This document shows positions 40,392 through 59,947 of a stretch of 64,000 nucleotides of DNA, piece after piece. Source of the DNA: a virus. The stretch spans positions 1-64,000 of the IMG/VR virus record IMGVR_UViG_3300037502_003155; one strand, given 5' to 3'. The notes beneath the pieces were generated by a model, which did no database searches, had not been told where the DNA came from, and was given only the letters and a program-made list of their open reading frames with translations. Within the stretch, counting starts at the first letter, position 1; the number at the start of each line of letters is the position of its first letter. The position numbers and the translations under genes were made by a program.

Positions 40392-41480
40392 TTATGAACG
40401 AGTCCTTCTCATTTTTTCAGTCACCTCTCGCCCGAAGTAGGCTGATGTCACCGTTACATCGGGGATTCTCTCTAATCCGCCATGTTGGGCGAGGGCATCG
40501 GGGTTGATGTATTCCATCATGTCTCTGGTGTAAAACGCCCCATTGTTGGCGGCTACCTGTTCAGCCACCATGCCCAGATCGGTACGACTAGGCTTACCTG
40601 TTGCCGCGTTTTGCCGAGCAATGCCAATATCTTTAGGGGACTCAAAGGAACCGTCATCAAACCCGACCATCATTCGATGGAACTCCGCCTTGCCATCGGG
40701 GGCATAGACGGCATTCGTGACGGATACGGGTTGTCTCTCTCCCATCGACAGGGATTTCTTGAAGGTTTCTAGGCTATCTTCACTATTGGCGATAGCCTTG
40801 CGCTCTTCTTCCCCCGCATTCTCCCAGAATTGCCTAGCGGCCCCCTGGATATCCCCACGGGCAAGCGACTTCTTGAGCCGATTATAGCTTTCCGGCTGAG
40901 ACAACAAAAAAGCAGAATCAAGCCCCTGTGTTGTACCGTCCGACATCACGGCATAGTATCGGGCCAGTTGGCCGCTATTTTGGCTGCGAATCATGTAGTT
41001 ATCGCTATAGGCATCTTCCGCGTAAACCTTGCGGTCTCCAAATGGCCCTTCTTCAATGAGGTATGGCGCGTCATTTTCTTTAAATGAGTCAGCGATGCGA
41101 GTGATCTTGGGTCGCTTTTCTGGAGGGGTTTCTAGCGATTCTTTTAGGGTTATGCGCTTTGTCTTAGCTGGTCTTTTAGGCTTTGTTTCAACGGGCTTAG
41201 GCTTCACATAAGGTTTCTGTCCCTTCGCAGCCTTAACCTCACTCTTTAACTTCGCCCGTTCTTTCGCTTTCTCTACTGTCTTCGCCTTGGCCTCTTTACT
41301 GGTCTGCGAAGCCTTATCCCGGCTGCATTTCTTCGTCCTGGGAATCCAACCCCGACCACAAGCAACGCCTTGGCCTCGTTGGTCTAGACGCATCCCGTCA
41401 GCATACCCTTGGATGAACTCCGGGGAAGCGTCCAACCTAAGGTCATACTGAAGCGCTAGAAGGTGATGGGATAAGGCCAT
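40392..41480 (-). CDS. leader-bearing putative internal head protein 1
   Basis: shared N-terminal FIQGYADGMRLD..CGRGWIP..KKC leader; own late promoter. Confidence 0.75.
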   Translation of the reverse strand: MALSHHLLALQYDLRLDASPEFIQGYADGMRLDQRGQGVACGRGWIPRTKKCSRDKASQTSKEAKAKTVEKAKERAKLKSEVKAAKGQKPYVKPKPVETKPKRPAKTKRITLKESLETPPEKRPKITRIADSFKENDAPYLIEEGPFGDRKVYAEDAYSDNYMIRSQNSGQLARYYAVMSDGTTQGLDSAFLLSQPESYNRLKKSLARGDIQGAARQFWENAGEEERKAIANSEDSLETFKKSLSMGERQPVSVTNAVYAPDGKAEFHRMMVGFDDGSFESPKDIGIARQNAATGKPSRTDLGMVAEQVAANNGAFYTRDMMEYINPDALAQHGGLERIPDVTVTSAYFGREVTEKMRRTRS

Positions 41481-41507
41481 GCTGCCAAGTTGAACTCATT
41501 AATTCCA

Positions 41508-41557
41508 ATCCTGTCACCCTACCTCACCTATACCCTCTATTTTGCGAAATCCGCTAA
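41508..41557 (-). promoter_or_regulatory. late promoter
   Basis: TTAGCGGATTTCGCAAA-N27-CAGGAT. Confidence 0.75.
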
Positions 41558-42486
41558 CCTAGCCCCGACAGATACGACAATTCACCCAATGCACTAACCC
41601 CGGTGCCACCATCAGCCCCCGTCCCTCGTACCCATAGCGCACGGGCATAGGGCACACACACGGTCGCAATGTTTCGGGTCGCTAGCAGATCCCCGACCTG
41701 CACGGCAAAAACATCCCTCGCAGGCCGACACACAATGCCGAGATAGGTCAGTTCATCCACCACTTCGCCGCTGATGGCCGACAGGTCGAACGACACCAGC
41801 ACCCCGGTCATCTCTGGTAATGACCCTTGCCAAACGCCCTCGATCTGCACCGATTGGAACGACCGGGGGCGGTAGGTTGTGCTGCCGTACAGCGTCACAA
41901 TGTCGCCAACTTGCACCAATTCCCCGACCTGGGGACTGGCAGGGTTAGCGGCGGCGGTAAAGCTCAGTCCTTCACTCACTGCCCTCGCCACGGTGAAGGT
42001 ATTGGCCCCAATAAAGTCGGCTAGATCAATGGCATAGTTCAGGTTGTTATCGGGGGCCGGGGCTTGGGCCTCTACCGTTAGCTGCACCGTCACCTCATCG
42101 CCCGCCACGGTGCCCACGGGGGCATAGAGGCTTAGCCCTTGGGTATCCGCCCATCCCATCAATGGCACGACACCAGGAATAGCGTTAGGGTCTGCCTTGA
42201 GGGTATAGAGTTGGCCCCCTAGCGCTACCCTTGCCACCGCTGACACCGTGTAGTTCTCGGCTTCGCTGAATGGCACCGTGAACAATCGGCCCGCATAGGT
42301 TGGGGCTGGCAGTGGCACCGATACCGCATCAAACCCAGGGCGCAACCCAAAGCCCCCGTAGGCACTCACCAGGGCGAACGGGGGCCGTACCTGGGGCGTG
42401 GTGATAGTTTGTACCCTGAGTAAAGGTGCCTTCGCCAATGGTGGCTCTGGGGTGGTGGGTAGGCTAGCGTTGGTGAGTAGGAGCAT
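41554..42486 (-). CDS. putative structural protein
   Basis: beta-rich composition, tail cluster. Confidence 0.65.
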   Translation of the reverse strand: MLLLTNASLPTTPEPPLAKAPLLRVQTITTPQVRPPFALVSAYGGFGLRPGFDAVSVPLPAPTYAGRLFTVPFSEAENYTVSAVARVALGGQLYTLKADPNAIPGVVPLMGWADTQGLSLYAPVGTVAGDEVTVQLTVEAQAPAPDNNLNYAIDLADFIGANTFTVARAVSEGLSFTAAANPASPQVGELVQVGDIVTLYGSTTYRPRSFQSVQIEGVWQGSLPEMTGVLVSFDLSAISGEVVDELTYLGIVCRPARDVFAVQVGDLLATRNIATVCVPYARALWVRGTGADGGTGVSALGELSYLSGLG

Positions 42487-42488
42487 GG

Positions 42489-43856
42489 TTAGCCGTAAAG
42501 AGCTTCTGCTAGGGAGATGTCACTAGAGTCAAGCTTTACGCCATTTTTTGTCCAAGTCAGGAAATCGGCCAATGATTCACGTTCTTGACGAGCTAGCTTT
42601 TGTGGATTCCCACTCCAGTCAATCCCAGACTCAAGCAAAGCGGATGCGATGGCCCTAGCCTCTTTGCCGTTACTTGATGCCGTAATTTGCATTCCCGATG
42701 GAATATGGGTGATGCTATAACCCGTTCTCTTCCCAGCAGCATTCGGGTTTAAGTTGATATCTTTTAGCGGAACAATCGCCAAATCTCCCTCAACCTTGGC
42801 GTTAACTTTTTGACTGCCATTAAGGCCAACAATCTCAATTTCTTGGGATTTGAATTTCTTTCCTTCCATGGCGTCTTGAAAAAATTGCCTGCGTTCTTCC
42901 ATTCCTGCCTTGGAACTAAGAGTCATTGCCGTCATCCTTTTTGGCAGGAAGGCGTCAGAAAACTTTTCCATTTTTTCAGGATCGGCTGGCTTTGGATTTG
43001 AAAGCCCTGATGTTGCTTTCTTGGTGGCTGTCCTCCGTTGTTTCCGTTCTTCTTTGTATTTCTTATCAAATTCCTCTTGTGACGTTGTTTTTGATCGGGT
43101 TTTTCCTGGTTGTTGTTTTGATTGCCGTTTAGCCCGATTTTCCATGCCGACACGCTCAGACCCCTGAATATCAGACGGCATCGAAAAAGCTTTGCCAGAT
43201 TTTTGAGATTCACGGGCCAGTCTTGCCGCTTTCTCCACCTGAAATGCAGCAGACCTAGGATTCCCTTTCGGGCCTCCTGATGCGCTCATGGTGCCCTTGA
43301 CGTTTCGTTGCCAATTCTTAGCCCACGAATTAGCCACTTCCATACCCGCAGCTTCCGCCTTGCCAACATCCCCCGTCTCGGCCAATGTACGGGAAAAGGT
43401 CAGCAAGGAATCACCCATCGACTCTAATTCAACATGACGGGCACCTATAGCGATTTCGCCTTGACGGGGCTTAGCGTTATTGGCTTCCTTTAGATATTCC
43501 GTGGCAACGTCCGTAACTCGCCTAGAAAACTCAGTATTGACCTTCTGAAGCTTAGCCGGATCTTGCTTAGGCTCTGGCTTTTCCTTATCCCGTGGCTTCT
43601 GCCCTTTCGCCGCCTTAACCTCGCCCTTGAGCTTCGCCCGTTCTCTAGCCTTCTCAGCCGTCCGTGCCTTAGCTTCTTTGGGTGTAGCCGTCGCCTTATC
43701 CCGCGAGCACTTCTTGCTCCTGGGAATCCAACCCTTACCACAAGCCACCCCCTGACCACGCTGGTCGAGGCGCATTCCATCCACATACCCTTGGATAAAG
43801 GCTTCAGAAGCATCTAGCCGTAGCCCATACCGAAGCGCCAAAGAAACCGTAGACAT
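42489..43856 (-). CDS. leader-bearing putative internal head protein 2
   Basis: near-identical ~90-aa leader to 40392; unrelated C-terminus. Confidence 0.75.
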   Translation of the reverse strand: MSTVSLALRYGLRLDASEAFIQGYVDGMRLDQRGQGVACGKGWIPRSKKCSRDKATATPKEAKARTAEKARERAKLKGEVKAAKGQKPRDKEKPEPKQDPAKLQKVNTEFSRRVTDVATEYLKEANNAKPRQGEIAIGARHVELESMGDSLLTFSRTLAETGDVGKAEAAGMEVANSWAKNWQRNVKGTMSASGGPKGNPRSAAFQVEKAARLARESQKSGKAFSMPSDIQGSERVGMENRAKRQSKQQPGKTRSKTTSQEEFDKKYKEERKQRRTATKKATSGLSNPKPADPEKMEKFSDAFLPKRMTAMTLSSKAGMEERRQFFQDAMEGKKFKSQEIEIVGLNGSQKVNAKVEGDLAIVPLKDINLNPNAAGKRTGYSITHIPSGMQITASSNGKEARAIASALLESGIDWSGNPQKLARQERESLADFLTWTKNGVKLDSSDISLAEALYG

Positions 43857-43858
43857 CG

Positions 43859-44521
43859 TTAAGCCTCCATATTCAAAACTTCCACCAACACCCGATCCGG
43901 GTCACAGGTCAGCGACAGCACCTTAGCCACCGCTGCACACTCACAGCCCGCCAACCTCACATAGACCACATCATCCCCCCGCCGTGCCAACAAATGGGCG
44001 GTGACTGGCCCTAGCGGTTCCTCTGTGGTCACAATGGCTTGGCCGTACTGCACCCTTACCCTTAGCGCACGGTCGTATAGGTCGGGGCTACACTTTGCGG
44101 TGGCCCCCTTGCCCACATCAGGAAACACCTGGATCGAGTTGGGGCCAGTGCCCAGCGTGGCCTCGGTCGCCTGAACCTGTTGCCCATCTACGCTCTTAGG
44201 CAGGGAGTAGGCCACAATCGTTGCGCTGGTCAGGTCTGCCGCTTCTAGGGTATAGCCCGTGCCCGATGGCCGTAGGGTGAGCAACCCAGGCCCACCCACG
44301 GCTTCAAACATCCCCACAAAGGGCATTCCCGATACCTCCCACCGTCGCCCCTTCAGCAGCGCATCCCGTTCAGGGCATGGGTTAAGCTCTACCGTCAGCA
44401 CATGGCCCGCCAACTTGGTTTTGCTGGGCTTGGCATAGACGGGCACCGCTAACCCCTGGAGGTCGCCTATGGGGTCAACCTCCAGCCATGTACGGTAGAT
44501 GTGGGTTAGGGAGGGGAGCAT
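43859..44521 (-). CDS. putative structural protein
   Basis: coupled ORF in late operon. Confidence 0.6.
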   Translation of the reverse strand: MLPSLTHIYRTWLEVDPIGDLQGLAVPVYAKPSKTKLAGHVLTVELNPCPERDALLKGRRWEVSGMPFVGMFEAVGGPGLLTLRPSGTGYTLEAADLTSATIVAYSLPKSVDGQQVQATEATLGTGPNSIQVFPDVGKGATAKCSPDLYDRALRVRVQYGQAIVTTEEPLGPVTAHLLARRGDDVVYVRLAGCECAAVAKVLSLTCDPDRVLVEVLNMEA

Positions 44522-45210
44522 TACTCACCCTGAGCCGTCCGAATCGCATCCATCGTTTGAGGATGGGTAAACGATCCGCTGGTGGTATTGACAGCCGTAG
44601 GCGATGCCGCGCCATCAAAGAACGAAATCCCGGTAGCCTGTACGGTAAACTTCCGGTTGGCATCAATGTCGGGGGCAATGGTCAACTGCGCCAACTTGCG
44701 TACCTTGCCACTCCCACTAGCGGCGGTCGTCGTCGTTCGAGAAATGGCATTCGATACTGCACTGCCATTTGACAAAGACAAGCAGGTAACGGTACAGGTA
44801 AACGCGCCCGTCGTGCCAGGGGTAACACCCGTCACAACCACGGTATTTTCTACGCCTGTTCCACCCTGTACCGCCATTACGTCAGGGTGTAGGTTAATCA
44901 ATTCAGCCAGGGCAGCCGCTACATCATCTTCGGTCGGGGTCTCGCTGGAATCAAAGAACCAGGAAAAAACCCGCGCCGCCCCCGTGGGGCCATCAATGCT
45001 CACCTGGTAATGGGCATCAGCCACGGGCAGGTTAGCCTGAGAAACGGTGATGGTCTCTACCTGTGGTTCGCTGGTCGCATCCAAATTTACCCAGTGCTCT
45101 ACCCGTACATTGGCACCCCCGGCAATGGGCACCACACGGGCTTCGACCTCCAACGACACCGAGGACGTGGACGTGGTAATAGCGGTATAGGTTAAGTCAG
45201 CAATACTCAT
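44521..45210 (-). CDS. putative virion structural protein
   Basis: T/S/V/A-rich; own late promoter. Confidence 0.65.
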   Translation of the reverse strand: MSIADLTYTAITTSTSSVSLEVEARVVPIAGGANVRVEHWVNLDATSEPQVETITVSQANLPVADAHYQVSIDGPTGAARVFSWFFDSSETPTEDDVAAALAELINLHPDVMAVQGGTGVENTVVVTGVTPGTTGAFTCTVTCLSLSNGSAVSNAISRTTTTAASGSGKVRKLAQLTIAPDIDANRKFTVQATGISFFDGAASPTAVNTTSGSFTHPQTMDAIRTAQGE

Positions 45211-45247
45211 GGGGAACCCCTAAAACAAGTGGTGTGATCACGTTGCT

Positions 45248-45297
45248 ACAGTGACAGGGCTAAGGCACGATAGGCGACAGTTTGCGGAATTAGCTAA
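45248..45297 (-). promoter_or_regulatory. late promoter
   Basis: TTAGCTAATTCCGCAAA-N27-CACTGT. Confidence 0.75.
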
Positions 45298-45772
45298 ACA
45301 ACCCTGCCAATGACCTCAATTCCCTTTCCAGCACCGGCCCCGTCACCCTACACAGTCGATTGCGGGGGCAACGCCCCAACCCACAGGAAAATGTAGCCCG
45401 GTCATTCACCATGGCTTGGTGCTGCGCCCGTTTCTCGCTAGAAAGCCGTCGGGTAAGCTTCCCAGGGTTAGGCACCGTCAGGCTATGGGCCAACATCGGC
45501 TGTACCGCACCGATCTGACGATAGGACAAGGTATTCCCTCGCCATTCAAAGCCGTAGACCACCCCATCTAGCCCCTTGAACCAACCCCGAAACCAGCGCT
45601 CAGCCCCCAGTTGCTCTGCCTGGAATGACACCTGTTGGATGCCATCGGTAAACCCGTGGCGGGCCAGGGCTTGGTATACCTTCAACCGGGCTTGCCCCTG
45701 CTGTCGGCGTTGGTAAAGGGTGGGGAGGATGGCCACTAAGAACGCCCCCGTCGTCTCAACACCATTGACCAA
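45290..45772 (-). CDS. hypothetical late protein
   Basis: ORF in head-tail joining cluster; start uncertain. Confidence 0.45.
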   Translation of the reverse strand: MVNGVETTGAFLVAILPTLYQRRQQGQARLKVYQALARHGFTDGIQQVSFQAEQLGAERWFRGWFKGLDGVVYGFEWRGNTLSYRQIGAVQPMLAHSLTVPNPGKLTRRLSSEKRAQHQAMVNDRATFSCGLGRCPRNRLCRVTGPVLERELRSLAGLFS

Positions 45773-46194
45773 TGCAGTTGACTCTGTTCTTCCACCTCCA
45801 CTCCCGGCACCAGGTCGCAGAGGATGCCTCCAAACGATTCAATCAACCCTTGGTCTAGCCGTTCTGAAACCAAGGCCGATAGTTGGTCTGCCGTTAGCCC
45901 CACCACATAGAATTTGCCCCTGCCGTGGATTTGGTCGAGGGCGTAGGCTTTGCTAATCCCCTGCACTTGGAGATCGTCAAGCTCGACCTCTACCCCCTGA
46001 ATGCCCTCGTACCGCTGCACCAGTCGAGGGGAAATCAGATCAATCGCTGGGTTAGGGCAGATGGTCAGCCAGGAAAAGCCCTCGGTGCGGTCGCCAATGG
46101 TTAGCACGCGGTTAGTCGGCAAGCCATAGCTACTGGCATGGTGGGCAGCGGCGTCCCTGGATGACTGGAATAGGGCGGTGAGGTTGATGGCCAT
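45736..46194 (-). CDS. putative head-closure protein
   Basis: follows the adaptor; size and C-terminal W..VLRR. Confidence 0.55.
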   Translation of the reverse strand: MAINLTALFQSSRDAAAHHASSYGLPTNRVLTIGDRTEGFSWLTICPNPAIDLISPRLVQRYEGIQGVEVELDDLQVQGISKAYALDQIHGRGKFYVVGLTADQLSALVSERLDQGLIESFGGILCDLVPGVEVEEQSQLHWSMVLRRRGRS

Positions 46195-46556
46195 TAGAAC
46201 GCAAACCCTAAACGTTTAGGCAATGTCCGGCGCAAGCGCTTAAACTGCTGTCCGTACAAGGTCTGGGAAAGGTCATCCTCTCCACCGGGGGCATTTACAC
46301 TGGCTTGCCCTTGCGCCACACTCTGAGCCGTTGCTGCACTCATCGCCTGCTGTAGCCGCTGACACTCAAGGGTATGCGCCGTCAACAACTTTACCCCTCG
46401 TTCCCGTATCGTGGCCACATCCCACACCGTTGCAGGGCATTGAAGCTCAGCAATGGCAAGGGCTTCTGAGATTTGGCCCTCAGTGAACCCGTCAAAGTCT
46501 GGGTAGGCCGTCTTGAATTGGGCAACGGTGATCGCCATGGCATCCTCAACGCTCAT
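46194..46556 (-). CDS. head-tail adaptor (DUF4054-like)
   Basis: F...YP.F, L.TAH.L, L..T.YGQQF..L. Confidence 0.85.
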   Translation of the reverse strand: MSVEDAMAITVAQFKTAYPDFDGFTEGQISEALAIAELQCPATVWDVATIRERGVKLLTAHTLECQRLQQAMSAATAQSVAQGQASVNAPGGEDDLSQTLYGQQFKRLRRTLPKRLGFAF

Positions 46557-46559
46557 CCC

Positions 46560-46609
46560 ACGGTGCCACGGGGGAACGACGTTGATTTAGGCTTTGCGAA
46601 ATGCGCTAA
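46560..46609 (-). promoter_or_regulatory. late promoter
   Basis: TTAGCGCATTTCGCAAA-N27-CACCGT. Confidence 0.75.
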
Positions 46610-46929
46610 TTCAGCCAGCCAGGGGTAAACCGGGTCTGCCCCACCCTAAACTTGCGGCGTCCCGTGGCCCACACCACGCCGCTGCCTACCGCTTGTACCT
46701 CGTATTCCCCGGTTGTTTGGGGCACGATGGTAAACCGATAGACCCCCGTGGCCGTCTTGGTCACTTCAGCGTTAGTGCCATAGACAAAGTTGCTTTGCTG
46801 CCCATTGGGGTTGATCAAGGCAAACCCGACCTTCTCTGGGTCGGTAAGAACTTCATCCTCATCGCGGAACTCGCCCGTGTAGATGATGGCCGTCCCTGGT
46901 TCAACAAGGGTCGTCGTTTCCTGGTTCAC
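46606..46929 (-). CDS. Ig-like small structural protein
   Basis: L.DP..V......P.G.....ATGVY.....G.Y pattern. Confidence 0.6.
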   Translation of the reverse strand: MNQETTTLVEPGTAIIYTGEFRDEDEVLTDPEKVGFALINPNGQQSNFVYGTNAEVTKTATGVYRFTIVPQTTGEYEVQAVGSGVVWATGRRKFRVGQTRFTPGWLN

Positions 46930-47235
46930 TTCGGTAAAGCCTCATGGAATGGGTAGCGGTGGTTAGGCCGAGCAAGGGCTCTGAGGGATGCAGAATCACA
47001 GCATGGGGCAACACGCTAAGCCCAGGAGATGGCATCGCTAGCCGCTCCAACGACAGACGATGCGTGGCGGCATTGAGCGTATGCACCCACAGCGGGGGCC
47101 GCTCAACACGACGGGAGGAAGGGTTTAAACCCAGCGGGCTGAGATTTCCTTTTAGGCCAAGCGGGAAGAGGGCCATGACTCTACAAAACTCACCCCACCA
47201 TCTTACCAAGGCCACCCATAGCCTCCACTGCCAAT

Positions 47236-47840
47236 GAGTCAGTGTTCACTGACTGGCTGACAAAACGCCAGAACCGCCACCGCGCAAGGGTTTTGAGCAA
47301 CGTCAATAATCCCAGTCAGTGATTTGTCAGCGCCAGTCAGTACCAGTCAATAGCCTACTGACTGGCCAAAACCATTGATATACAAGGCTTTAGGGTACAC
47401 CAGTCAGCAAGTCAGTGAAATCCTTATATAGATATTTAAAATATTCCTCCCTGAAATGCCCTAAAGGATAAAAATGTACTACCTATAAAAATAATCGCGA
47501 TACCTCAATTTTCACTGACTTACTGACTCGTCCTACTCAAACCCTTGATATATAAGGTTTTTCACCAGTCAGAGCCTTACTGACTGACACTGACTGACAC
47601 TGACTGGTCTGCTGACAATTCTCCTAGAACCCTTGATATATAAGGCTTTCCATTAGTCAGTAGTTACTGACTGGTTTTACTGACTTGGATTATTGACTGA
47701 GATAGCTTCCCTCTAATCCAAAGATGGAAGTAAATATATCTACTAAGAGTTATTTATCTATATCTATAAAGAGCGCATTGTATACAGTACACAGTCAGTT
47801 TTCCGCAGATCGGCCAGTGGTGTTGGCGCTGACTGACTGG
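47236..47840. repeat. ACTGAC iteron module B (origin-like)
   Basis: collinear with module A; opposed iteron arrays around an AT-rich core; ends TTGTATACAGTACACA. Confidence 0.8.
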
Positions 47841-47909
47841 GCAGCAAAAAGCCCCACCGTGGGGCGGGGCTGGTCAGCGGGCTTTTGAGGGGCAGTGGTG
47901 CGGGCTGGG

Positions 47910-48146
47910 CTACAGAACCGGGCGAGTACCCTTGCCAGCGGCCCGCCACCCGCTGACAAACGCCTTGGCCCATTCGTGCGAGGAGCGCACGATCTGAATG
48001 TCGCGCCCTGCGATGGGGGCATGGACGGGGAGCTTGGTGTGGCCCTGTTGTGCCCAGCGACGGCCTGCCTCGTAGCAAGCCTCCTCGGTAGCGTTGAAAT
48101 CGGGGCTAGGGGTAAAGGTTCCCCCGAATGATGCGTATGCGGTCAT
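47910..48146 (-). CDS. hypothetical protein
   Basis: own TTGACA promoter (48220-48225), AAGGA SD, downstream hairpin. Confidence 0.55.
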   Translation of the reverse strand: MTAYASFGGTFTPSPDFNATEEACYEAGRRWAQQGHTKLPVHAPIAGRDIQIVRSSHEWAKAFVSGWRAAGKGTRPVL

Positions 48147-48221
48147 GGTGTTTCCTTGTTGATTGGGTGGTGAGGTTGGTTGCCTCATGTAAATCAATAT
48201 GCCACACTTGACCGTGACGTG

Positions 48222-48467
48222 TCAAGCGTTTTCTGAATTATCTTTTTGCTGTTGGCGTTTAATGTTACGCAGGATTCTGTTGACTGCTCGGCTGCGTCGT
48301 TGGCGTTCAGCGTCGGGGGTGCCACCTGGTGCGCCGTGGCGGTGCCCGCCGTGGGAAGACTGAGAGTCGGTCACGGTTTTTCCGCAGGGCTTGCATCGCC
48401 AGCGCTGGGCATAGCTTGACGTTCTTCCGTTGCGAACCATGGGTCTATTGCAGTGGGGGCAGTTCAT
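48222..48467 (-). CDS. InsA-like zinc-ribbon protein
   Basis: CPHC....RNG......QRWRCK.CGK; AERQRRSR tail; AGGAGG SD. Confidence 0.65.
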   Translation of the reverse strand: MNCPHCNRPMVRNGRTSSYAQRWRCKPCGKTVTDSQSSHGGHRHGAPGGTPDAERQRRSRAVNRILRNIKRQQQKDNSENA

Positions 48468-48601
48468 GTCGTTGTCATCGTTGCCTACCTCCTTAATATA
48501 CGCGCTTGAGTGTGACGGGCTAATCAAGGTTGCAGCACGTTTTAATGACCCAACAAAAAAGCCCCTCGGGCGGAGGGGCTATCACACACTCAATCACGCA
48601 T

Positions 48602-49461: not shown

Positions 49462-49505
49462 AGCAGGGGAGCGTTCCCTCAGATCTGAGGGAACGCTCCC
49501 CTGCT
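49462..49505. repeat. perfect 44-bp palindrome
   Basis: AGCAGGGGAGCGTTCCCTCAGA|TCTGAGGGAACGCTCCCCTGCT, no loop. Confidence 0.95.
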
Positions 49506-50568: not shown

Positions 50569-50597
50569 AGAGGGTTGTCTTTTGAAGGGATACCACT

Positions 50598-50646: not shown

Positions 50647-50679
50647 CTGAGTGTGTAGGGAGTGGTCATGGGTCGTTGC

Positions 50680-51252
50680 CTATCGGTAGAGGTTGGCCCG
50701 TGCTGAACTACGACCTTTTACAGCCCTAGTCTTTCTTACCTTGCCCCCTTCAATCTTGACCGTCTGCCGTTGCAATCGTTTCGGGGTGTTTGCACGACTT
50801 CCCCATAGTGCTTGCTGCTTTGCTTTCTTAGCCTCACGGGTAGCCTTCTGCTTTGCAATGGTTTCAGGGCTGCGTTGCCGCTTAGCCTTCTGCGGTGCAG
50901 GAGAGTTATCACCACCCTCAAACGGGTTAGCCATTTCCACTCCAAAGAACTCCTCCTCTTGAGGTGCGGGCTGTGGTCTTTGAGCCCTTCTTGCGGCCTG
51001 TTGCGCCATCGCATTCCGCTTACCTGTGGCCACTCGTGCCTTAGCCCCGGCATCACCCGCTTTCAGATCTGCGGCAAGCTGTCGCGATCCTTTAGCGCTA
51101 CATTTCTTCCCTGGGGCAATAAACCCCCGACCGCAGGGCTTTCCTTGGCCCTTAGCATCGAGACGCATTCCATCGGCATAGCCCTGAACAAAGTCTTCGG
51201 GGGCATTGAGGGGCAGTCCATAATGCGCTGCCCACGCTTGTGTTGAATACAT
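50680..51252 (-). CDS. leader-bearing basic protein 3 (putative internal head/DNA-binding)
   Basis: FVQGYADGMRLDAKGQGKPCGRGFI..KKC; K/R-rich; immediately after the capsid gene. Confidence 0.75.
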   Translation of the reverse strand: MYSTQAWAAHYGLPLNAPEDFVQGYADGMRLDAKGQGKPCGRGFIAPGKKCSAKGSRQLAADLKAGDAGAKARVATGKRNAMAQQAARRAQRPQPAPQEEEFFGVEMANPFEGGDNSPAPQKAKRQRSPETIAKQKATREAKKAKQQALWGSRANTPKRLQRQTVKIEGGKVRKTRAVKGRSSARANLYR

Positions 51253-51324
51253 GGCAAAACCTCTTGAGTGCCAGAACGATAAACAGCGGCAGGCTCCCCA
51301 CGGGGCAAGCCTACCGAACCCAAC

Positions 51325-52236
51325 CTAGACGTTGATCACCAGATGGACGCTGTAGGGGCGATACAGGCGAATCCCGGCATAGCGGAAGATGGCGGGCCGC
51401 TCATAACCCAGGCCACGACGTTGAAGATCCAGGAATTTGAAATCTTCGTAGACCATGGCTTTCAGCTTGCGACGGTCACGCTTCATCACCAGCATCACGT
51501 CTTCGCCGTCAGGCCCAGCCCCATCGCACTCAATCAGGGGTTCCACGTTCTTGATGTACGGAGAAGCCGCCAAAAACTGCTCCAGAATGGTGCGGTCGGT
51601 GTTGTCGGTGCGGTTGGTGGTGCTCACGTAGTCGAACTGGGCCGTGGGCAAAAACAGCGTATCCGGCTGCTCTACCCGTTGGGTTAGGTTAACTACGGTC
51701 GTCACCGCATCGTTCATGGTGGCCAAGATTTGAGCCGGGGTAGCGGTGCTATTGAACCGGACGGGGCTGTAAGAGCGCAGTACGTCGGGATGATTCAGCA
51801 GTCCGGGCATCCGCAGTTCATCAGAACCGACCGCCATCAGTCGGTTCATTTCCTGCATCGCCGCTTCACGAACAGCGGTGATTTCCTCAGCTTCTAGGGG
51901 GAAATCAGCGACTTGGGCGCTAGCAATGTCGTCATCGCTGAAGTAGTACATCCCTGCCCATTTATGGATCTGCTGAGTAAACTCCTCAGACAGAACATTG
52001 ATGGAAGGGATAGAGGTGCTGTAGGAACGAACCAAACCAAACTGACCCACGCGAGTCAGTTGGCGGTAGGTGCTGGTACGAAAACCGGGCTTATTTTGGA
52101 TGTCTACGGGGCAAACCTTACCATCGGCAAAGCTCAATTCCGCAAACTGTACCCGTTGGGCCTCGGCTTCAATGTCCTCCAACTGGCGAAGAAACATCCC
52201 AGGAATGGCGTCATCTTTTCGGATTGAAATAGACAT
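51325..52236 (-). CDS. major capsid protein (DUF2184/encapsulin-like HK97 fold)
   Basis: FL.RQLE.IE, G......GLLNHP, PDTL.LP, G....RP motifs. Confidence 0.88.
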   Translation of the reverse strand: MSISIRKDDAIPGMFLRQLEDIEAEAQRVQFAELSFADGKVCPVDIQNKPGFRTSTYRQLTRVGQFGLVRSYSTSIPSINVLSEEFTQQIHKWAGMYYFSDDDIASAQVADFPLEAEEITAVREAAMQEMNRLMAVGSDELRMPGLLNHPDVLRSYSPVRFNSTATPAQILATMNDAVTTVVNLTQRVEQPDTLFLPTAQFDYVSTTNRTDNTDRTILEQFLAASPYIKNVEPLIECDGAGPDGEDVMLVMKRDRRKLKAMVYEDFKFLDLQRRGLGYERPAIFRYAGIRLYRPYSVHLVINV

Positions 52237-52292
52237 AATTTGTCTCCAGAACAGGGGAATAAAACGTGGTTACGCAGGGGCTAGGCCGAAAC

Positions 52293-53144
52293 CTAGTTCA
52301 AGAACAGCGCAACCTTCACGACAAAGCCCCCGTTCGGGTCGGCTGTCGCAGGTTCAACGATTTTCACACCCGTAGGTAGGGCGAGGTTGCTGGTGCTGGT
52401 GGCCGTCACAACGCCTAGGGTGGTGTTGCAATCGATGTAGGCCGTAGTGGTCGGCAGGATGCTGCCAGAATCACACTTCACCCACACCCCACCACCGGGG
52501 GCGGTGCGGTCGATGACGTCCATCACATCGTTAGCGGCGTACTGGGCAGCCGCCGTATTGCCAACAGCGCCCCGCTCAATGGCATGGGTCGGGGCGATGG
52601 CCACCCCAGCCACCGTCACGTTGCTGGCAGTAGCAGGCAGTCGGGCTTCGTTGAACGAATCCACGGTGCCAGAGGTAGAGCGAACCACGAAACGCCCAAA
52701 AGGCACCGCAGTTGAACCCGATGCCGCCACCGTTTGAGTGAGGGTGAGGTCATTAGTCGTGGTGGCATTGGTCGGGCTAGTGACCGTGTAGCCCACGTTG
52801 GGTGTCAACGCCCGCAACGTGATGACGTTGGACGCTTCACTGACGGCAAAGTATTGGCTAAGGTCGCTAGCCTGAATCGCCGCCAGAAGGCCCGCCGTTA
52901 GCTCGGCGCGGGTTGCACTGCCATCGGTGGTAAACGAAGCCACGATGGCCGCAGGGATAGCCCCACCGACGACCGAGATCGAGTAGGTGCCGCTATTGTC
53001 TACCGTGGCTGGGGTGGTGACCGTCCAAGTGTTCTGGGCATCCAGGGCAGAGTTAATCATGGCGCGTACGCCCATATCCCCTAGGCCATCGACTTGACCG
53101 GGGAACGCCTTAGCGCTGGTTTGGCTGTAGTTGGTTTGTGACAT
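52293..53144 (-). CDS. capsid decoration/cement protein
   Basis: Q..Y......FPG, VPFGR.V, GVWV; between DUF2213 and capsid. Confidence 0.75.
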   Translation of the reverse strand: MSQTNYSQTSAKAFPGQVDGLGDMGVRAMINSALDAQNTWTVTTPATVDNSGTYSISVVGGAIPAAIVASFTTDGSATRAELTAGLLAAIQASDLSQYFAVSEASNVITLRALTPNVGYTVTSPTNATTTNDLTLTQTVAASGSTAVPFGRFVVRSTSGTVDSFNEARLPATASNVTVAGVAIAPTHAIERGAVGNTAAAQYAANDVMDVIDRTAPGGGVWVKCDSGSILPTTTAYIDCNTTLGVVTATSTSNLALPTGVKIVEPATADPNGGFVVKVALFLN

Positions 53145-53192: not shown

Positions 53193-54755
53193 CTAGCGAC
53201 GTTTGCCGTAGTTGTCTTTGTTGGCCGTCAACGGGGTAGCAAAATTGTTCATCCGCCGTTCCCGATCTGCCGCACCCGCATCCATGGCACGGCCACTGGT
53301 AGCGGTGCCCAGCACGAGGCTCAACTCATCGGCATAGCCAGAGTCAGAACGACGGCTAGGGGCGCTGTGTTGGCCCATGGCGTCGTCAACAATGGCGTCG
53401 TAGAGGGCTTGGATGTAGGGATCGCTGGCATCGTCCCGGTACAGGTTGGGGCGCTTTTGCTCGACCACAAAGCGGCGAATGTCGGCAGCATCGTCGATGG
53501 CATCCATCCGCAGATCGGAGAAGTCAACGCCAATGGCCTCAGCTTCGCGAATAACTTTGACCATTTCGACAGCATCAGACCGGACAGAATCCTTCTTAGA
53601 TTTCATGTCCTTTTTGGTCTTCTTAGACTTGGCGGGGGCGGGCATCTCGTCCTCGTCCTCGTCCATATACTCTTCGTCTTCGTAGTCTTCGTCCTCGTAG
53701 TCTTCCATATCATCCATGTCTTCGACGTATTCCTCGTCTTCCTCCATGTCCTCTAGGAAGGCAGGCATCTTGCCTTTTTTCTTGCCCTTGCCATCTAGGC
53801 GCACATAGCTATCGCCACGCCATGCAATGTCGGCATCCTCTAGCAACGATTCGGCCTGGTCTAGGCGGTCACGCAGGGCTTCGATCATGCCGTCCTTGTA
53901 CTGAACTTGCCCTTGAACATCGCCTAGGGCCGATTCGGCGCTATCAGCGCGATCCTCAGCCTCTTCTAGCTCAGCCTCAAGACTGTTGACGGCAGAGTCA
54001 TTGCGGGCCAGTAGGGGAGAGATGGTGTTGAAAACATCTTGGGGCACCTGAACGGAGCCACCAGGAAGATTCAAAGTTGCCAAAGGCATATATCCGTTGG
54101 TACTCATGGTTTCCTCTTGGGTAAACAGATTGGAGTATGGTGGCTCCTGTGCTTTAACCTGATAAGCCAGGTCGTTTTCTTCCAAATCAGCGCTATCAAA
54201 GCGACCTAACACCTTCACCGAGGGGCCTGCTCGACCCATCCGAGTAAGGGCAATGTGGTTTACCTTGATGTCTCGCTGAATGGCGTCGTAGCGTTCGCTT
54301 TGGCCTGTGGCAGGGTTAAACCACACCCCAGAGGTTTCCTCGATTCGGCACTTATAGCCCGCGCTAATTTCGGAGGCATCCCCGCGATGCACCGCATCCT
54401 GGGCATCGCGGCTCATCACCGCAATTTGCCCCGTTACAAAACCACCCTTCCCAGGCACAACGACGTACCGAGGGGTTTGCAACGAAATGCCCTTTCGCAG
54501 CCGATCACCGTTCGACTCATCGACTAACCCCGTGGGATGTTCGAGGGTTAGCGAGGCTAAGCCAAATTCGGCAATGGACTTTTGGTTCTCCTCAGGGGGC
54601 CGAAATTCGCGCCGTGTTTTGCCGCCCGGAGCTTTATACTCCAGTACCCCATCCCGGGCAAAGATGGCATCACACAACAAAATCCCGTCATCAGTACGAT
54701 GCGGGTTCAGAACTTGGCCGCTATCAAATCGAATCGCCAAAGGAACACTAGCCAA
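53193..54755 (-). CDS. DUF2213 prohead protease/scaffold
   Basis: ARxGVL.Y, E.RPPEE, T.EHP, E.SAGY, YDAIQR.I..NHIA....GRAG; acidic scaffold tail. Confidence 0.9.
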   Translation of the reverse strand: MASVPLAIRFDSGQVLNPHRTDDGILLCDAIFARDGVLEYKAPGGKTRREFRPPEENQKSIAEFGLASLTLEHPTGLVDESNGDRLRKGISLQTPRYVVVPGKGGFVTGQIAVMSRDAQDAVHRGDASEISAGYKCRIEETSGVWFNPATGQSERYDAIQRDIKVNHIALTRMGRAGPSVKVLGRFDSADLEENDLAYQVKAQEPPYSNLFTQEETMSTNGYMPLATLNLPGGSVQVPQDVFNTISPLLARNDSAVNSLEAELEEAEDRADSAESALGDVQGQVQYKDGMIEALRDRLDQAESLLEDADIAWRGDSYVRLDGKGKKKGKMPAFLEDMEEDEEYVEDMDDMEDYEDEDYEDEEYMDEDEDEMPAPAKSKKTKKDMKSKKDSVRSDAVEMVKVIREAEAIGVDFSDLRMDAIDDAADIRRFVVEQKRPNLYRDDASDPYIQALYDAIVDDAMGQHSAPSRRSDSGYADELSLVLGTATSGRAMDAGAADRERRMNNFATPLTANKDNYGKRR

Positions 54756-54769
54756 ACGCTATTAGCGCT

Positions 54770-54819
54770 ACTTTGACAAAGGGCTTTCTAAATTGGATAA
54801 AATTAGCGAAATACGCAAA
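54770..54819 (-). promoter_or_regulatory. late promoter (capsid operon)
   Basis: TTTGCGTATTTCGCTAA-N27-CAAAGT. Confidence 0.7.
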
Positions 54820-54827
54820 ATCGGGAT

Positions 54828-55271
54828 ATGCCACTAACCCGCGAAGAAGAATTAGGGATTATCAGAAACAAGTTGGTGCGACTCGGAATCCTCACCGATA
54901 CCGATACCGCCCACAACCTTGCACTCCTAGAAAGCCACCTGGTACGAGCATTGGCTGAGCACAATGAGAAGATCAACCCCTACGAACGGGTCGGCAAAAT
55001 CCTGCGCCACCATCGGGAACAACGCCTACAGATGCCTCGACACATTGCGGTAGCGAGGGCAAACCGTATCCTCCATTCATTGGGAGACCAAGGCATCTGT
55101 CATCAATCTGCCCTCTGCCACATGGAGGCAGGCACCCAGCGGATCTACTACCTCCAAGCCTTGGCCCTCGCTGATGTCTACGGCATTCCCTACGACGGTC
55201 TACTCCCCCCAGGCTACGACCCTGAGCTAGGACTGACGGATTGGGACGACGCCGCACCAGACCTAGGCTAG
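54828..55271 (+). CDS. XRE-like HTH regulator
   Basis: G..LR..RE....QS.L..ME.G...I.....LA.VYG. Confidence 0.7.
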   Translation: MPLTREEELGIIRNKLVRLGILTDTDTAHNLALLESHLVRALAEHNEKINPYERVGKILRHHREQRLQMPRHIAVARANRILHSLGDQGICHQSALCHMEAGTQRIYYLQALALADVYGIPYDGLLPPGYDPELGLTDWDDAAPDLG

Positions 55272-55321
55272 GCAACACCACACGATGACACAGCCCCGAC
55301 CAGGGGCTTTTCTTTTGCCTT

Positions 55322-55970
55322 GAGTCAGTCAGCACTGTCAGCACTGTCAGCAAAACCCTGACAGACCACCTTAACCCCGCAGTCCGTGGAAAACTCTTTG
55401 TGTACTGTATACAATCCCTCTATATATAGATATAGATAAATCTTCTAATAGATTTTTATTTATCTATCTCCATTGGTGGGGGTAGATTTAGGGGGATTTG
55501 TCAGTAAAAAAATAGTTTTGTCAGTGCCTAGTCAGTGAATTGTCAGTAAAGGTGTTTAAGAAAGAATCCTTATATATCAATGCTTTCAGGTTTTTGGTAG
55601 GGGATTTGTCAACAAGTCAGTGAATTTTGAGGGTTAGCGCAGAAAACTATAGAGGCCACAAAAATACCCCCTGAGGAAAACCTAGGGGGTGATGGAGGTA
55701 TCTAGTGCGTTTTTGAAATATACCCCTAGGTTTTTACTGACTTGCTGACTCGTCCTGCTCAAACCCTTGATATATAAGGATTCTTGGTACTGACTAGCCA
55801 CTGACTAATCACTGACTAGTCACTGACAAATCCCTTTTTTACTGACAAATCTCTTTTTGCTTTGAAGCGTGAAGCCCTTACAGTATAAGGTTTCTGGGCA
55901 ACGATGGGGATAAAGTTTGATGCGTTTTAGCCAAGTCAGCGTTTTACTGACACATCTCCTGGCTGACTGG
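55322..55970. repeat. ACTGAC iteron module C (inverted relative to A and B)
   Basis: TGTGTACTGTATACAA end motif reversed; shares ACTGACTT.CTGACTCGTCCT.CTCAAACCCTTGATATATAAGG with B. Confidence 0.8.
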
Positions 55971-55981
55971 CAGCGCCCTCG

Positions 55982-56542: not shown

Positions 56543-58291
56543 TCAAAGGTATGGCCAAAGGCACCGGTAGCCTTGGAGGGAGGAGTCGGTGCGGTTGGGT
56601 TTCTTTTGTTGGCGCTTGAAATGCTGTAGTTGAGTAAATAGCGAGTTGCCCCAAAAGCTTCCTTCGCCGCCTAATATTTTGTCCGCCGCAGCAATTCGCG
56701 CCATCACCGTCCCCTTCCCTACCTGAAGGTTTGTGGCGATCTGCTGAGCGCTAAGACCTTGTGCTGTCAGTCCTAGTACGTCTTTGTTGAGAATGTCTTT
56801 GGCAAACTCTTTTAATTCGCCAACCTGCTTATCTGTAAAAGGAAAAGCATTCTCTTTCACCCTCGCCTTCTGCCCCTTAGCCTCTTTCACCGCCCGCTTA
56901 AGCTCAGCCCTAGCCTTAGACTTTTCAACGGTGCGATCCAAAGCGGCTCTAGGGGTTTGCCTAGCTTTCTCTGGGCTGCATTGCTTCCCCCTAGGAATCC
57001 AGCCATTTCCACACGCTACCCCTTGCCCCCGTTGGTCAAAGCGGTTGTGCATCACATCTAGGTAGCCTTGAAGGAAGGCATCAGCACGGGTATTCTTCGC
57101 TTCCTGGGCCTTCCATAGTTGATCCATAATCCAGTTGTAAGGCCGTTCCCCGTTGGCGTCCTCTGTGCCAATGGTCTGCATTGTCTTAAGGGTCTTTCTT
57201 AACTCTGGATGCGAAGCCGCTAACAACGTCCGTTCTCTGCGTTCAAGCTCATCCCTAGAATATCCGTCTGAGGCTTGGTCAAGTTCAGCTTCAGGATCCC
57301 ATTTGGTGTATTTGTTGAACGCTTTGCGTGCATCAGGGTTAGCCGCAACTTGCTTTAAGTCGTCCCGTGCATCGTCATACCCTGCCAATTCCTTAGGAGA
57401 GTATTCAAACAACTCCATCACTTCATCAAAGTCGCCTGAGTCAATGCCCTTCAACTGTTGAGCGAGATCCTTAGCCTTAGGAAAAGCTTCAACCTGGCTC
57501 AAGTCGCCGCTTTCTATGGCAACCCTCAGCACTTCTTTGGCCGCATAGGGGTCATCGCCAAATGCCGCATATTGATCGGCTAGCCGTAGCGCATTCTGGG
57601 TCTTAGCTAGGTCTTTCTTGACACTAGCAGCGGACGTTTCCGTTGCTAGCTCTAATACTTCCTCTGGCTCATCCAACTGCATCAGATCAGACAGAAATGC
57701 CTGGGTATCCTCAGTGGGGGTATAGGGGTAATCCCGCTCATCTGGTTCCTGCCCTGCCCCCGTTGATTCCCATTGCTCTAGGTCTTTTTCGTAGCGCTCA
57801 TAGTTAGGATCGGCCAAGACCTTTTTAACGTCGGCTTTTGCTAGTGTCTCCCCAGGATTATTCACCCGGCACACATAGGCTTGGCTGATATGACTACCGC
57901 CACACTTTTGCCCCCGTGCTGCCTCCCCCTGGTCAAACCGCCATACCCCATGTTGGTTCAACGCTTCCAGGATAGTTTCAAACTCAATGACTCCCCCCTG
58001 CTGGTAGCGCTTGCGAATATCCCGCAGCAGTGCCGATAGCTCAGGGCGCATATCCGCCGATTCTTCCGCCGCCTCATGGAGGTGCCCTATCGCCAATAGC
58101 TTGTGCTCTGGGTAACCTGCCTCAGCTTCCCCCATTAGCACCAGGGCAGCGCCAAGGTGTTTCTCCACGCACTCCATGCAGGATGGCCGTACCGAGTCCA
58201 TCCGCATCGTATCGGCATACCCCCACACAAACTCCGGGGGCGTATCCAGTGGCAACCCATATCGGGACGCAAGCACAACAGTAGACGGCAT
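56543..58291 (-). CDS. leader-bearing polyprotein 4 (multiple leader copies; last module LuxR-like HTH)
   Basis: ATG 58291 lies downstream of the late promoter; leader motifs at the N-terminus, internally twice and at the C-terminus. Confidence 0.75.
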   Translation of the reverse strand: MPSTVVLASRYGLPLDTPPEFVWGYADTMRMDSVRPSCMECVEKHLGAALVLMGEAEAGYPEHKLLAIGHLHEAAEESADMRPELSALLRDIRKRYQQGGVIEFETILEALNQHGVWRFDQGEAARGQKCGGSHISQAYVCRVNNPGETLAKADVKKVLADPNYERYEKDLEQWESTGAGQEPDERDYPYTPTEDTQAFLSDLMQLDEPEEVLELATETSAASVKKDLAKTQNALRLADQYAAFGDDPYAAKEVLRVAIESGDLSQVEAFPKAKDLAQQLKGIDSGDFDEVMELFEYSPKELAGYDDARDDLKQVAANPDARKAFNKYTKWDPEAELDQASDGYSRDELERRERTLLAASHPELRKTLKTMQTIGTEDANGERPYNWIMDQLWKAQEAKNTRADAFLQGYLDVMHNRFDQRGQGVACGNGWIPRGKQCSPEKARQTPRAALDRTVEKSKARAELKRAVKEAKGQKARVKENAFPFTDKQVGELKEFAKDILNKDVLGLTAQGLSAQQIATNLQVGKGTVMARIAAADKILGGEGSFWGNSLFTQLQHFKRQQKKPNRTDSSLQGYRCLWPYL

Positions 58292-58315
58292 GGGACATTC
58301 CGCGAAACTGTCACC

Positions 58316-58365
58316 AGTCTGCCAAGGGTGCGGGGGCATGGCTTAGCGTTTGCGGAATGCGCTAA
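58316..58365 (-). promoter_or_regulatory. late promoter
   Basis: TTAGCGCATTCCGCAAA-N27-CAGACT. Confidence 0.8.
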
Positions 58366-59564
58366 AACAGTTTGCTCAAGAACCCTTGCAAGTTCGGCTC
58401 ATACTTTTTGATGGCCTCGTTCAGATAGGTCTGCCGATCTCGGCTACCGTAGGGGGTTTCCGCATTGAACGGTGTGTCAAAACCCTTTTCAAAGATGGTT
58501 TTGGGGTCGGGTGGGTCGGTTAGGATTTCGATGCCCTTGCGTTTGGCCCCGTCTTCAGACATAGAGAAGATGGCACAGCGACACCCCCAGCCAGCCGGAA
58601 CTCTGCCCGCCCTCCAGAATGGGTCATCGGCATAGATCGCTTTGTTGTGCAGCGCTTTGTGGTGGTCACGGGGCTGGGGCGAATCACGCCACCGCCAGAC
58701 CCACAGCGGGCGACGCACCAACACCGATGGTTCCCGCATCTGCTGATACCGTCCGGCCCCCATGGCCCCCCTGAAGTTGGTATCAAAGATTGTCCAGATG
58801 TGGCGGGGGTTGGCAGGTTTCCAGCCCTTGCGGCCAATCAACCTAGACCACGACTTTTCAAAGTCAGCAAAGCTCATCCCCTCGGTAACGGCCTGTTCCA
58901 CCAACCACTTCGCAGCCTTAATCAGGTCAGCCTGGGCCATCCTTGCCACCACAAAGGCCCAATCGTGAAAGTCTGCGGTAAGTTGCTGGTAGGTCTCCGC
59001 TGGTAGCGCTACCTTAGCCCTGAAATAATCCACGGCCTCCTTGAACGGCAACTTAAGCCATGCGGGCTTAGCCCTGCCATCAAAGCGCACCCCGTCGCCA
59101 TCGTCGCCCTCATCTAGCACCTGTTCCCGCCCTGCCAAGTTAGCCAGCACCATGCCCTGGTAAACCTCCCGCTCTAGGCCACGGTAGGGCAGTCGAGTAA
59201 ACAATTCCCCCGGTTGCATGGAGATGCGTTGTAGGGCCGCTTTCATGTCCCCTTGCGCCAGAATCCAGGCTAGAGTACGTTTCTGCCATTGCTCCATGAT
59301 GGGCTTCACATGAGCCAAGCTACGTTCCCTCAGCCATCGGCCAAGGGCATCGGGGTCATCCCCGGCATCGTGGCGCAGGTCATCCCCTAGCCAGCCATCG
59401 CGGCGTAGCTTGGCCCCCGTCATCGACTCCACCGCAAACAGGGCCAAGGCTCGGCCCTCGGCTACCAGTGCCGATTCATCGAGGGAGTCTAGGCGGGTGG
59501 GGGTGATTCTGGGGTCAGCAATGCCGATGAGAGCGGCGTAAAATTCAGCTTCGGTTAGGTTCAT
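58362..59564 (-). CDS. minor head morphogenesis protein (Mu gpF/MuF)
   Basis: LPF.EA..YFR.K, TI..TN...A..AGR, R..H..L, DDPFW, P.GWGCRC. Confidence 0.9.
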   Translation of the reverse strand: MNLTEAEFYAALIGIADPRITPTRLDSLDESALVAEGRALALFAVESMTGAKLRRDGWLGDDLRHDAGDDPDALGRWLRERSLAHVKPIMEQWQKRTLAWILAQGDMKAALQRISMQPGELFTRLPYRGLEREVYQGMVLANLAGREQVLDEGDDGDGVRFDGRAKPAWLKLPFKEAVDYFRAKVALPAETYQQLTADFHDWAFVVARMAQADLIKAAKWLVEQAVTEGMSFADFEKSWSRLIGRKGWKPANPRHIWTIFDTNFRGAMGAGRYQQMREPSVLVRRPLWVWRWRDSPQPRDHHKALHNKAIYADDPFWRAGRVPAGWGCRCAIFSMSEDGAKRKGIEILTDPPDPKTIFEKGFDTPFNAETPYGSRDRQTYLNEAIKKYEPNLQGFLSKLF

Positions 59565-59947
59565 GGGCGCGTCACCTTCATACTTAATCCATCCTGATAC
59601 CCCTGCAAAAATGCGCTATCAGGCCGATACCGTTCCTTTTGGCGGTTGGCCCTAGCCAATATCCCTTGCACATCCTTGTAGTTTTTAGGCACCTTCTCAC
59701 CCCATCTGCGAAACTGCATGGCGGCGGGTGTGGGCATTCCCTTGTCATCCACCAACGGATCTTTACGGCTGAGGATCTGCGCGGCCTTTCGACTGTTGAA
59801 CTTAGCCCGATCCCACTTATCGCCATCACTGGCCCCTGTGGCCTTCCGCACGGGCTTACGCACCGCACCGCTGCCCTCGTTATACTGGGCCATCTTGCGA
59901 TTGGTGCGACGGTCGTAGGCGGCGTAATGTTCGGCTAGGGTGGTCAT
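59561..59947 (-). CDS. small basic head-region protein with C-terminal leader half-motif
   Basis: ends RPDSAFLQGYQDG. Confidence 0.7.
   Translation of the reverse strand: MTTLAEHYAAYDRRTNRKMAQYNEGSGAVRKPVRKATGASDGDKWDRAKFNSRKAAQILSRKDPLVDDKGMPTPAAMQFRRWGEKVPKNYKDVQGILARANRQKERYRPDSAFLQGYQDGLSMKVTRP

Follow-up and report, generated by a model that had tools for sequence, protein, structure and literature searches.

A Cys-knuckle module joined to exchangeable cargo in the late genes of an uncultured freshwater cyanophage: a candidate address for the procapsid interior

To our knowledge, little is known about how tailed phages pick proteins for the capsid interior, apart from the short leader of phage T4. 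In the herpesvirus UL26/UL26.5 system, assemblin is fused to a scaffold, and a shared C-terminal capsid-binding tail is cut off at the M site (A-S). Short terminal peptides at either protein end load cargo into HK97-fold shells, as exemplified by encapsulin cargo-loading peptides and the C-terminal targeting tail of the HK97 protease. The T4 capsid-targeting sequence, carried by IPI-III and Alt, comprises 10-19 residues and is cleaved after L/I-x-E (PMC3012670). Polyvalent proteins (Iyer et al. 2017, PMC5512222) contain effector domains, 2 to 15 per polypeptide, and are predicted to be packaged in the head and injected, while the MuF polymorphic toxins of temperate phages (PMC5576092) couple a conserved N-terminal head-associated part to a variable C-terminal part that undergoes cassette exchange. 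Here we describe a protein module of ~90 residues that recurs in the late genes of IMG/VR virus record IMGVR_UViG_3300037502_003155. The window analysed is a 64-kb stretch (positions 1 to 64,000) of this 76,925-bp record, for which the completeness estimate is 91%. An earlier annotation made from the letters alone, henceforth referred to as the sequence-only reading, had proposed that an exchangeable address tag in the manner of the T4 leader packages variable effectors from this locus.

Four late open reading frames (ORFs) on the minus strand carry the module at the N-terminus: o40392 (40392..41480, 362 aa), o42489 (42489..43856, 455 aa), o50680 (50680..51252, 190 aa) and o56543 (56543..58339, 598 aa as the longest ORF). 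The last of these also contains a second, internal copy. A profile of the five copies searched against the whole 76,925-bp genome retrieved exactly those five (E 5e-19 to 6e-52), ruling out chance or low complexity as the source of the likeness. The leader motif that the sequence-only reading had placed at the start of the four ORFs was recovered from the translations and a six-frame scan, and occurred only in the named minus-strand ORFs. Its description of the following segments was equally accurate: GQG..CG.G[WF]I...KKC was seen after the leader in o40392, o42489 and o50680, and a basic helix ending KGQK in o40392, o42489 and the internal copy of o56543. Two subtypes exist and both are represented in the window. 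Type I reads GQGVACG.GWIPR.KKCS followed by the helix ending KGQK, and type II reads GQGKPCGRGFI...KKCS followed by an LKAGD helix.

An AlphaFold2 model built from 49 aligned sequences (mean predicted local distance difference test score, pLDDT, 79) contains a helix at residues 3-9, a second at 18-28 (the A helix, F.QGY.D.M), a beta-hairpin at 37-44 and a long basic helix at 60-83 with a net charge of +7 to +12. The hairpin holds the first Cys, and the second Cys lies six residues beyond it; this two-Cys hairpin is referred to as the knuckle. As modelled, the shared part is a small compact folded module. The part that is invariant across the family is the knuckle, which follows R-x-D and a basic residue. 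Copies within the genome share 49-70% nucleotide identity and about half of their identical residues use different codons, so that the peptide, and not the DNA, is under selection; the codon divergence also rules out recent duplication or gene conversion behind the likeness. Across lineages lacking DNA similarity the module is kept down to ~35% identity. Searches of Pfam, PHROGs and PDB sequences with the module gave zero matches, Foldseek against the PDB returned no row below E 1 for the model, and megablast and tblastn against 50,697 phage records found no module match. The module is thus undescribed and absent from any curated domain family tested (Pfam, PHROGs, PDB).

The module proteins differ in how their parts are arranged. 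In o40392 the module (41196-41480) precedes a unique cargo (40392-41195), and in o42489 the module (43578-43856) is followed by cargo and then by a C-terminal tail, LDSSDISLAEALYG, at 42492-42533. The type II module of o50680 (GQGKPCGRGFI...KKC plus the LKAGD helix, ~51028-51252) is succeeded by a short basic tail. The multi-module protein o56543 is the most elaborate, with leader helices, a CxxC helical insert of 87 residues, a degenerate knuckle (RGQKCGGSHISQAYVC, 57863-57913, about 87 residues past the leader), an acidic middle, the full second module (residues 416-496, 56852-57094), a weak helix-turn-helix and a C-terminal half motif (RTDSSLQGY..., 56546-56593) that the sequence-only reading had not listed. 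Counted along the longest ORF, its leader begins at residue 24, and translation probably starts at Met17 (position 58291). The CxxC helical domain (C.EC.EKH...GYP.H...GHL) occupies residues 49-142 (57914-58195, minus strand), between the A helix and the knuckle. It had zero Pfam matches, and it also occurs in P0031, P0035, P0038, P0042, P0043, P0047, P0052, P0090, P0102 and P0110, where its placement is N-terminal, internal or C-terminal. Residues 519-547 (56699-56785, minus strand), after the second module, gave weak GerE/LuxR and HTH_23 matches (E 0.004-0.006, below cut-offs), and this helix-turn-helix region is possibly a DNA-binding cargo.

A fifth gene, o59561 (59561..59947, minus strand, 128 aa, weak DUF6321 match), ends in an A-helix tail at 59564-59626. 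The half motif DSAFLQGYQDG reported near its end was seen, together with 10 further residues. Homologs of o59561 in P0038, P0068 and P0104 extend past this terminal helix into a knuckle and cargo. Beyond the stop codons of o56543 and o59561, the other reading frames contained no leader remnants.

The cargo parts of the module proteins are unrelated to one another (best BLASTP E 0.66), as the sequence-only reading had claimed, and its remark that they are AT-richer also holds: G+C is 0.48-0.51 in cargo, 0.53-0.57 in modules and 0.55-0.60 in structural genes. The two main window cargos gave zero matches in the ESM Atlas. A profile search of 1.84 billion protein representatives yielded only 93 clusters with the module. 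Among 112 family proteins, the knuckle falls within the first 60 residues in 78 and later in 21, and 10 have at least two knuckles; relatives reach up to four per protein. The 70 proteins with an N-terminal module distribute into 46 unrelated cargo groups. Pfam cargo domains comprise DnaJ (8 proteins), InPase (3), GNAT (2), APH/ABC1 (2), Pkinase (1) and ADP-ribosyltransferase (1), plus one portal fusion, and HExxH peptidase motifs were recognised by eye in P0030 and in the portal fusion of L011. This repertoire bears out, for the relatives, the claim of effector-like cargo. Scans of IMG/VR with an A-motif pattern and with the capsid protein found nothing, and a degenerate knuckle DNA pattern retrieved 8 IMG/VR stretches. 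L018, L019, L021 and L023 were rejected from these as chance matches to the pattern, and L020 is possibly a distant member in an unannotated context.

Exchange of cargo was observed both between relatives and in natural populations. The close relative L007 has collinear structural genes, 79-97% identical to those of the window, and carries module genes in other slots with other cargo. There, the ortholog of o50680 after the capsid gene keeps 89% identity for just the first 89 aa and differs in the remainder. An additional module gene lies between DUF4054 and g152 in L007, and P0032 between g229 and g220. The position of o42489 between g220 and g310 is found in the window only; the L007 ortholog sits between g310 and g764, the slot of o40392 in the window. 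Contigs from four lake studies were compared over window positions 38000-52500. Lake contigs were found in which o42489 is exactly absent (joints 42486/7->43858/71) or o40392 is absent (joint 40393->41599). In others the o42489 cargo is swapped for 926 other bases (42519->43590), from just after KGQKP to the last ten codons. Contigs from two of the lake studies diverge exactly at the module/cargo border of o40392 (41194/41195), and one in-frame leader-to-leader joint matches the chimeric leader of P0009. These comparisons show a modular design, variable effector-type cargo and natural exchange, so the proposal of an exchangeable shared part with variable cargo holds among relatives and in lakes, with breakpoints at module borders and also at the C-terminal tail.

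Natural fusions connect the module to the phage head. P0069 is a portal that carries the module C-terminally. In a second lineage, L011 (IMG/VR record G001), positions 8504-11653 encode a 1049-aa protein in which the module is likewise fused to the C-terminus of the portal; it has two knuckles and a C-terminal HExxH domain, and the gene after it (11923-13077) encodes an Alt-like ADP-ribosyltransferase with N-terminal leader and knuckle. The same record encodes an 854-aa InPase protein with three knuckles, and its DUF2213 protein has an A-like helix, a knuckle and a Lys-rich tail in the place of the scaffold half, the acidic scaffold being a separate gene. In a third lineage, L022, the order is MuF, a 314-aa knuckle protein, DUF5872, DUF2213 and capsid protein. 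A MuF gene directly precedes a knuckle protein in both the window and L022. All four readable contexts (window, L007, G001/L011 and L022) are DUF2213 plus DUF2184 heads, and in 4/4 cases the module goes with DUF2213/DUF2184/MuF head modules, in agreement with the sequence-only reading. Three kinds of fusion, along with gene position, point strongly to a location of the module inside the procapsid. As a side observation, Pfam matched the MuF-like head protein at L022:8783-10504 (minus strand), which belongs to an unrelated IMG/VR phage, to an intein splicing domain below the cut-off (26.3 bits vs 35.8).

The DUF2213 protein of the window (53193..54755, minus strand, 520 aa) consists of a prohead protease domain (54198-54755) followed by a scaffold half. 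Pfam still lists DUF2213 as an uncharacterised family, and a PDB sequence search with the protein gave zero matches. The model of the N-domain (pLDDT 88) aligned with T4 gp21 (5jbl) at a VIA Z of 10.9, with a root-mean-square deviation of 2.8 A over 131 residues, while its Z to herpesvirus proteases was 7-8.6; Z dropped to 4.8 at the first unrelated fold, and the top Foldseek ranks were the same families. H73, S131 and H167 are invariant in 72 DUF2213 homologs, as is D187 at the domain end, which in a 26-homolog alignment is always followed by Ser (D187-S188, the protease/scaffold junction). The scaffold half is variable overall, yet ~7 further D-S/A sites are conserved in it, and it contains a hyper-acidic Tyr-rich tract with a net charge of -22. 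On the strength of the modelled fold, we identify the DUF2213 protein as a prohead protease of the gp21/assemblin fold, joined to a scaffold.

A comparable dipeptide recurs in the module proteins. Ahead of the A helix stands D-S/A with a hydrophobic or basic residue before it, whether the helix is N-terminal, lies at an internal junction or belongs to a C-terminal tail. Tails that begin with x-D-S/A within the last 25 residues were counted in 24/103 proteins vs 9.8% of internal windows, and [LFIM]D[SA] occurs in 56/93 pre-knuckle segments vs a background of 9.6%. Some tails resemble the N-terminal helix of their own lineage, as with the end of o42489 and its own start, and likewise in P0064 and P0083. 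Judged from these patterns, hydrophobic-D-S/A would mark prohead protease sites, and the flanking helices may be removable docking peptides.

The reading that we favour, and regard as reasonably probable, is that the module acts as a procapsid-interior address for a split, polymorphic set of polyvalent, head-packaged effectors. The module would mark proteins for the procapsid interior. The phage and a restricted group of uncultured relatives that share its head type (DUF2213 protease-scaffold, DUF2184 capsid, DUF1073 portal and MuF) attach it to many unrelated cargos. The cargo genes, small and separate and spread over the late operon, would jointly form a split, polymorphic polyvalent protein set. 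During procapsid assembly, the amphipathic helices or the basic helix would dock cargo to the highly acidic scaffold or to the shell. The assemblin-like protease may then cut the flanking helices at hydrophobic-D-S/A, its own scaffold probably being cut at such sites too. After packaging, the basic helix would rest on the DNA, and the cargo would exit together with it. Because it is conserved, the module would also provide the homology for the exchange of cargo cassettes between co-infecting relatives. The D-S/A tails, the pre-knuckle D-S/A, the D187-S188 junction and the charge of the basic helix versus that of the acidic scaffold are suggestive support. A broader proposal, which we hold only tentatively, is a general portable encapsidation system of phages with an assemblin-like protease-scaffold. 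Short amphipathic helices flanked by hydrophobic-D-S/A protease sites would mimic the docking helix of the scaffold itself and load any fused protein, the Cys-knuckle and basic helix would pass cargo from acidic scaffold to DNA, and lake phages would trade cassettes at module borders as a polymorphic injected counter-defence arsenal.

Several observations weigh against the favoured reading. Packaging, cleavage and injection are read from gene fusions and gene position, and no module was found in cultured phages (50,697 records). No enzymatic domain is recognisable by Pfam/PHROGs or ESM Atlas in the cargos of the window itself. A portal needs no address tag, and the portal fusions therefore indicate that the module does more than target proteins, for instance by contacting DNA or serving as an assembly hub. 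The p-values of the motif counts ignore kinship of the sequences, and enrichment of R[LFMIV]D in head proteins is modest (5 observed vs 1.06 expected in the DUF2213 protein). A scaffold helix at 53373-53456 weakly resembles the A motif. Comparison of the A helix with the conserved scaffold helix was the top local hit in hhalign at a non-significant P of 0.054, a hidden Markov model (HMM) of the scaffold helix failed to retrieve the leaders, and the reverse HMM reached at most 2.4 bits, though it matched the same helix in 12/26 homologs, above all 60 shuffles. Homology between the two helices was set aside as not significant by hhalign and in both HMM directions.

Other functions of the module have to be weighed against an address for the procapsid interior. 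It might be a DNA- or nucleoid-binding domain that tethers late-made host-takeover enzymes to the DNA of the producing cell or the phage, unpackaged. The model, a helix-helix-hairpin followed by a very basic helix, is compatible with such a role, Foldseek gave winged-helix regulators as its only weak rows (all E above 1), and one source names a member 'sRNA-binding protein'. We nevertheless regard tethering as unlikely, given that the module is fused to a portal C-terminus and to the prohead protease, its genes adjoin portal and MuF inside late structural operons, and packaged polyvalent proteins typically have such a cargo repertoire. Slightly less likely again is an oligomerisation unit of an inner core or ejection apparatus on the portal, with variable parts that are structural or specific to the host envelope rather than cytoplasmic enzymes. 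Portal fusions would place 12 copies at the crown, the long helix could form a coiled coil, two of the window module genes lie among large tail-like genes, and the window cargos are non-enzymatic as far as discernible. The DnaJ, kinase, ADP-ribosyltransferase, GNAT and InPase cargo of relatives speaks for enzymes instead, and whole genes are dispensable in natural populations, unlike core structural parts.

The exchange data themselves could be accounted for if the module served chiefly as a recombination handle, comparable to the conserved junction in polymorphic toxin genes, and had no targeting role. The breakpoints at module borders, the in-frame leader-to-leader joint with its counterpart in the chimeric leader of P0009, and the cassettes in other slots of L007 would all be expected of a handle. 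The copies of one genome, however, have DNA identities of only 49-70% and yet retain the peptide; the module has a confidently predicted fold, persists to ~35% identity in lineages without DNA similarity, and is fused to portal and protease. This explanation is the most improbable of the three, and the procapsid address remains our preferred reading.

The phage carrying the module is an uncultured freshwater cyanophage. By capsid protein, its closest cultured phage is Planktothrix phage PaV-LD (37% identity), with other cyanophages next, and one relative of the module proteins is labelled as from a Cyanobacteriota metagenome-assembled genome. Of the sampled words from window positions 40392-43856, 72-99% were present in lake or freshwater metagenomes; since near-identical DNA of this segment occurs in at least 13 such studies, the phage is widespread in freshwater. 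Two metatranscriptome runs contained only 8-9% of sampled words. Two scans of 185,579 species genomes gave zero matches, and the phages bearing the module therefore look lytic.

All late genes lie on the minus strand of the window. Their order starts with the portal (PF06381, DUF1073; 59944..61620), whose C-terminal tail contains RGDSVRLDA, and continues with o59561, the MuF-like minor head protein (58362..59564, a separate gene between o59561 and o56543), o56543, a Mu-G-like gene and the DUF2213 protein. A cement protein, the major capsid protein (PF09950/DUF2184; 51325..52236), o50680 immediately downstream of it, and small genes including DUF4054 follow, and after these come o42489, a 310-aa gene, o40392 and proteins of 764 and 1319 aa. 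The module genes are hence interleaved with head genes, sitting among the portal, MuF, Mu-G-like, DUF2213, cement, major capsid and DUF4054 genes, as the sequence-only reading had stated. Its claim that two of them have their own late promoter was not borne out. None of the leader genes has a sigma-70-like site upstream; the region contains 8 such sites vs 11.3 expected, although the consensus may not match the late promoter type of the phage. The gaps upstream of the leader genes hold no common motif, and on both counts a common late promoter was set aside.

Two stretches within the late region, 46957-50050 and 54756-55981, are ORF-poor. The former contains terminator-like hairpins on the minus strand at 47871, 48580, 49610 and 50044, three of which have the form AGCCC...GGGCT plus a T run, and around 47300-48700 the lake contigs have numerous loose ends and small indels. 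The plus strand, opposite to the late genes, encodes a ribonucleotide reductase (phrog_367, E 1e-153) at 28975-31341, between the late region and the early genes.

The locus provides a sequence-defined module that natural fusions link to portal, prohead protease and many effector-type enzymes, and that also marks the points of cargo swap. If it is a true address, it would supply a testable protein-loading rule for HK97-fold phages that have an assemblin-like protease-scaffold, which are a large class. It would also offer a way to list the injected effectors of uncultured cyanophages, including kinases, DnaJ proteins and ADP-ribosyltransferases, and a tag for putting proteins into phage capsids in laboratory strains.

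Compared with the described systems, the module has no sequence relation to the encapsulin and HK97 tails, and the resemblance is one of analogy only. Like the T4 targeting sequence, it is an N-terminal element common to several unrelated proteins of one phage; in addition, an Alt-like ADP-ribosyltransferase is among the cargos of a relative, and a gp21-fold prohead protease is encoded by the phage. Of the tag proposed by analogy with the T4 leader, exchangeability and variable cargo stand. The element is not a short peptide, however, but a folded module of ~90 residues without sequence likeness to the T4 sequence. Nor is it purely N-terminal: it is also found internally, at up to four per protein, and C-terminally, its helices also form C-terminal tails, and it is fused to portal and prohead protease. 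With herpesvirus UL26, the DUF2213 protein shares an assemblin/gp21-type fold, as modelled, fused to a scaffold with an invariant junction dipeptide, and, as in UL26/UL26.5, cargo and scaffold have short terminal helices after a conserved dipeptide. The proposed site differs, being hydrophobic-D-S/A rather than A-S.

The MuF toxins likewise combine a conserved N-terminal part, a variable C-terminal part and cassette exchange. In contrast to them, the module proteins P0001-P0004 contain no MuF domain (PF04233) by Pfam, MuF being the separate adjoining gene at 58362-59564; no immunity gene is evident, and the phages look lytic. The polyvalent proteins (PMC5512222) are comparable in cargo, as the relatives' cargo is largely the same repertoire (InPase, ADP-ribosyltransferase, GNAT, kinases and a zincin-like peptidase). 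They are also comparable in their fusions, to portal or MuF there and to portal among module relatives, and in predicted packaging and processing. No such module is described there, and it is not among the Pfam LPD families. The arsenal of the window is, moreover, split over 4-5 genes, each with its own module copy, and the module repeats between domains in a punctuation-like manner. With regard to the multiple domains of polyvalent proteins, o56543 is multi-module, o40392, o42489 and o50680 have one cargo each, and relatives have at most four knuckles. P0087 (1391 aa), P0079 and the L011 portal fusion are themselves polyvalent proteins.

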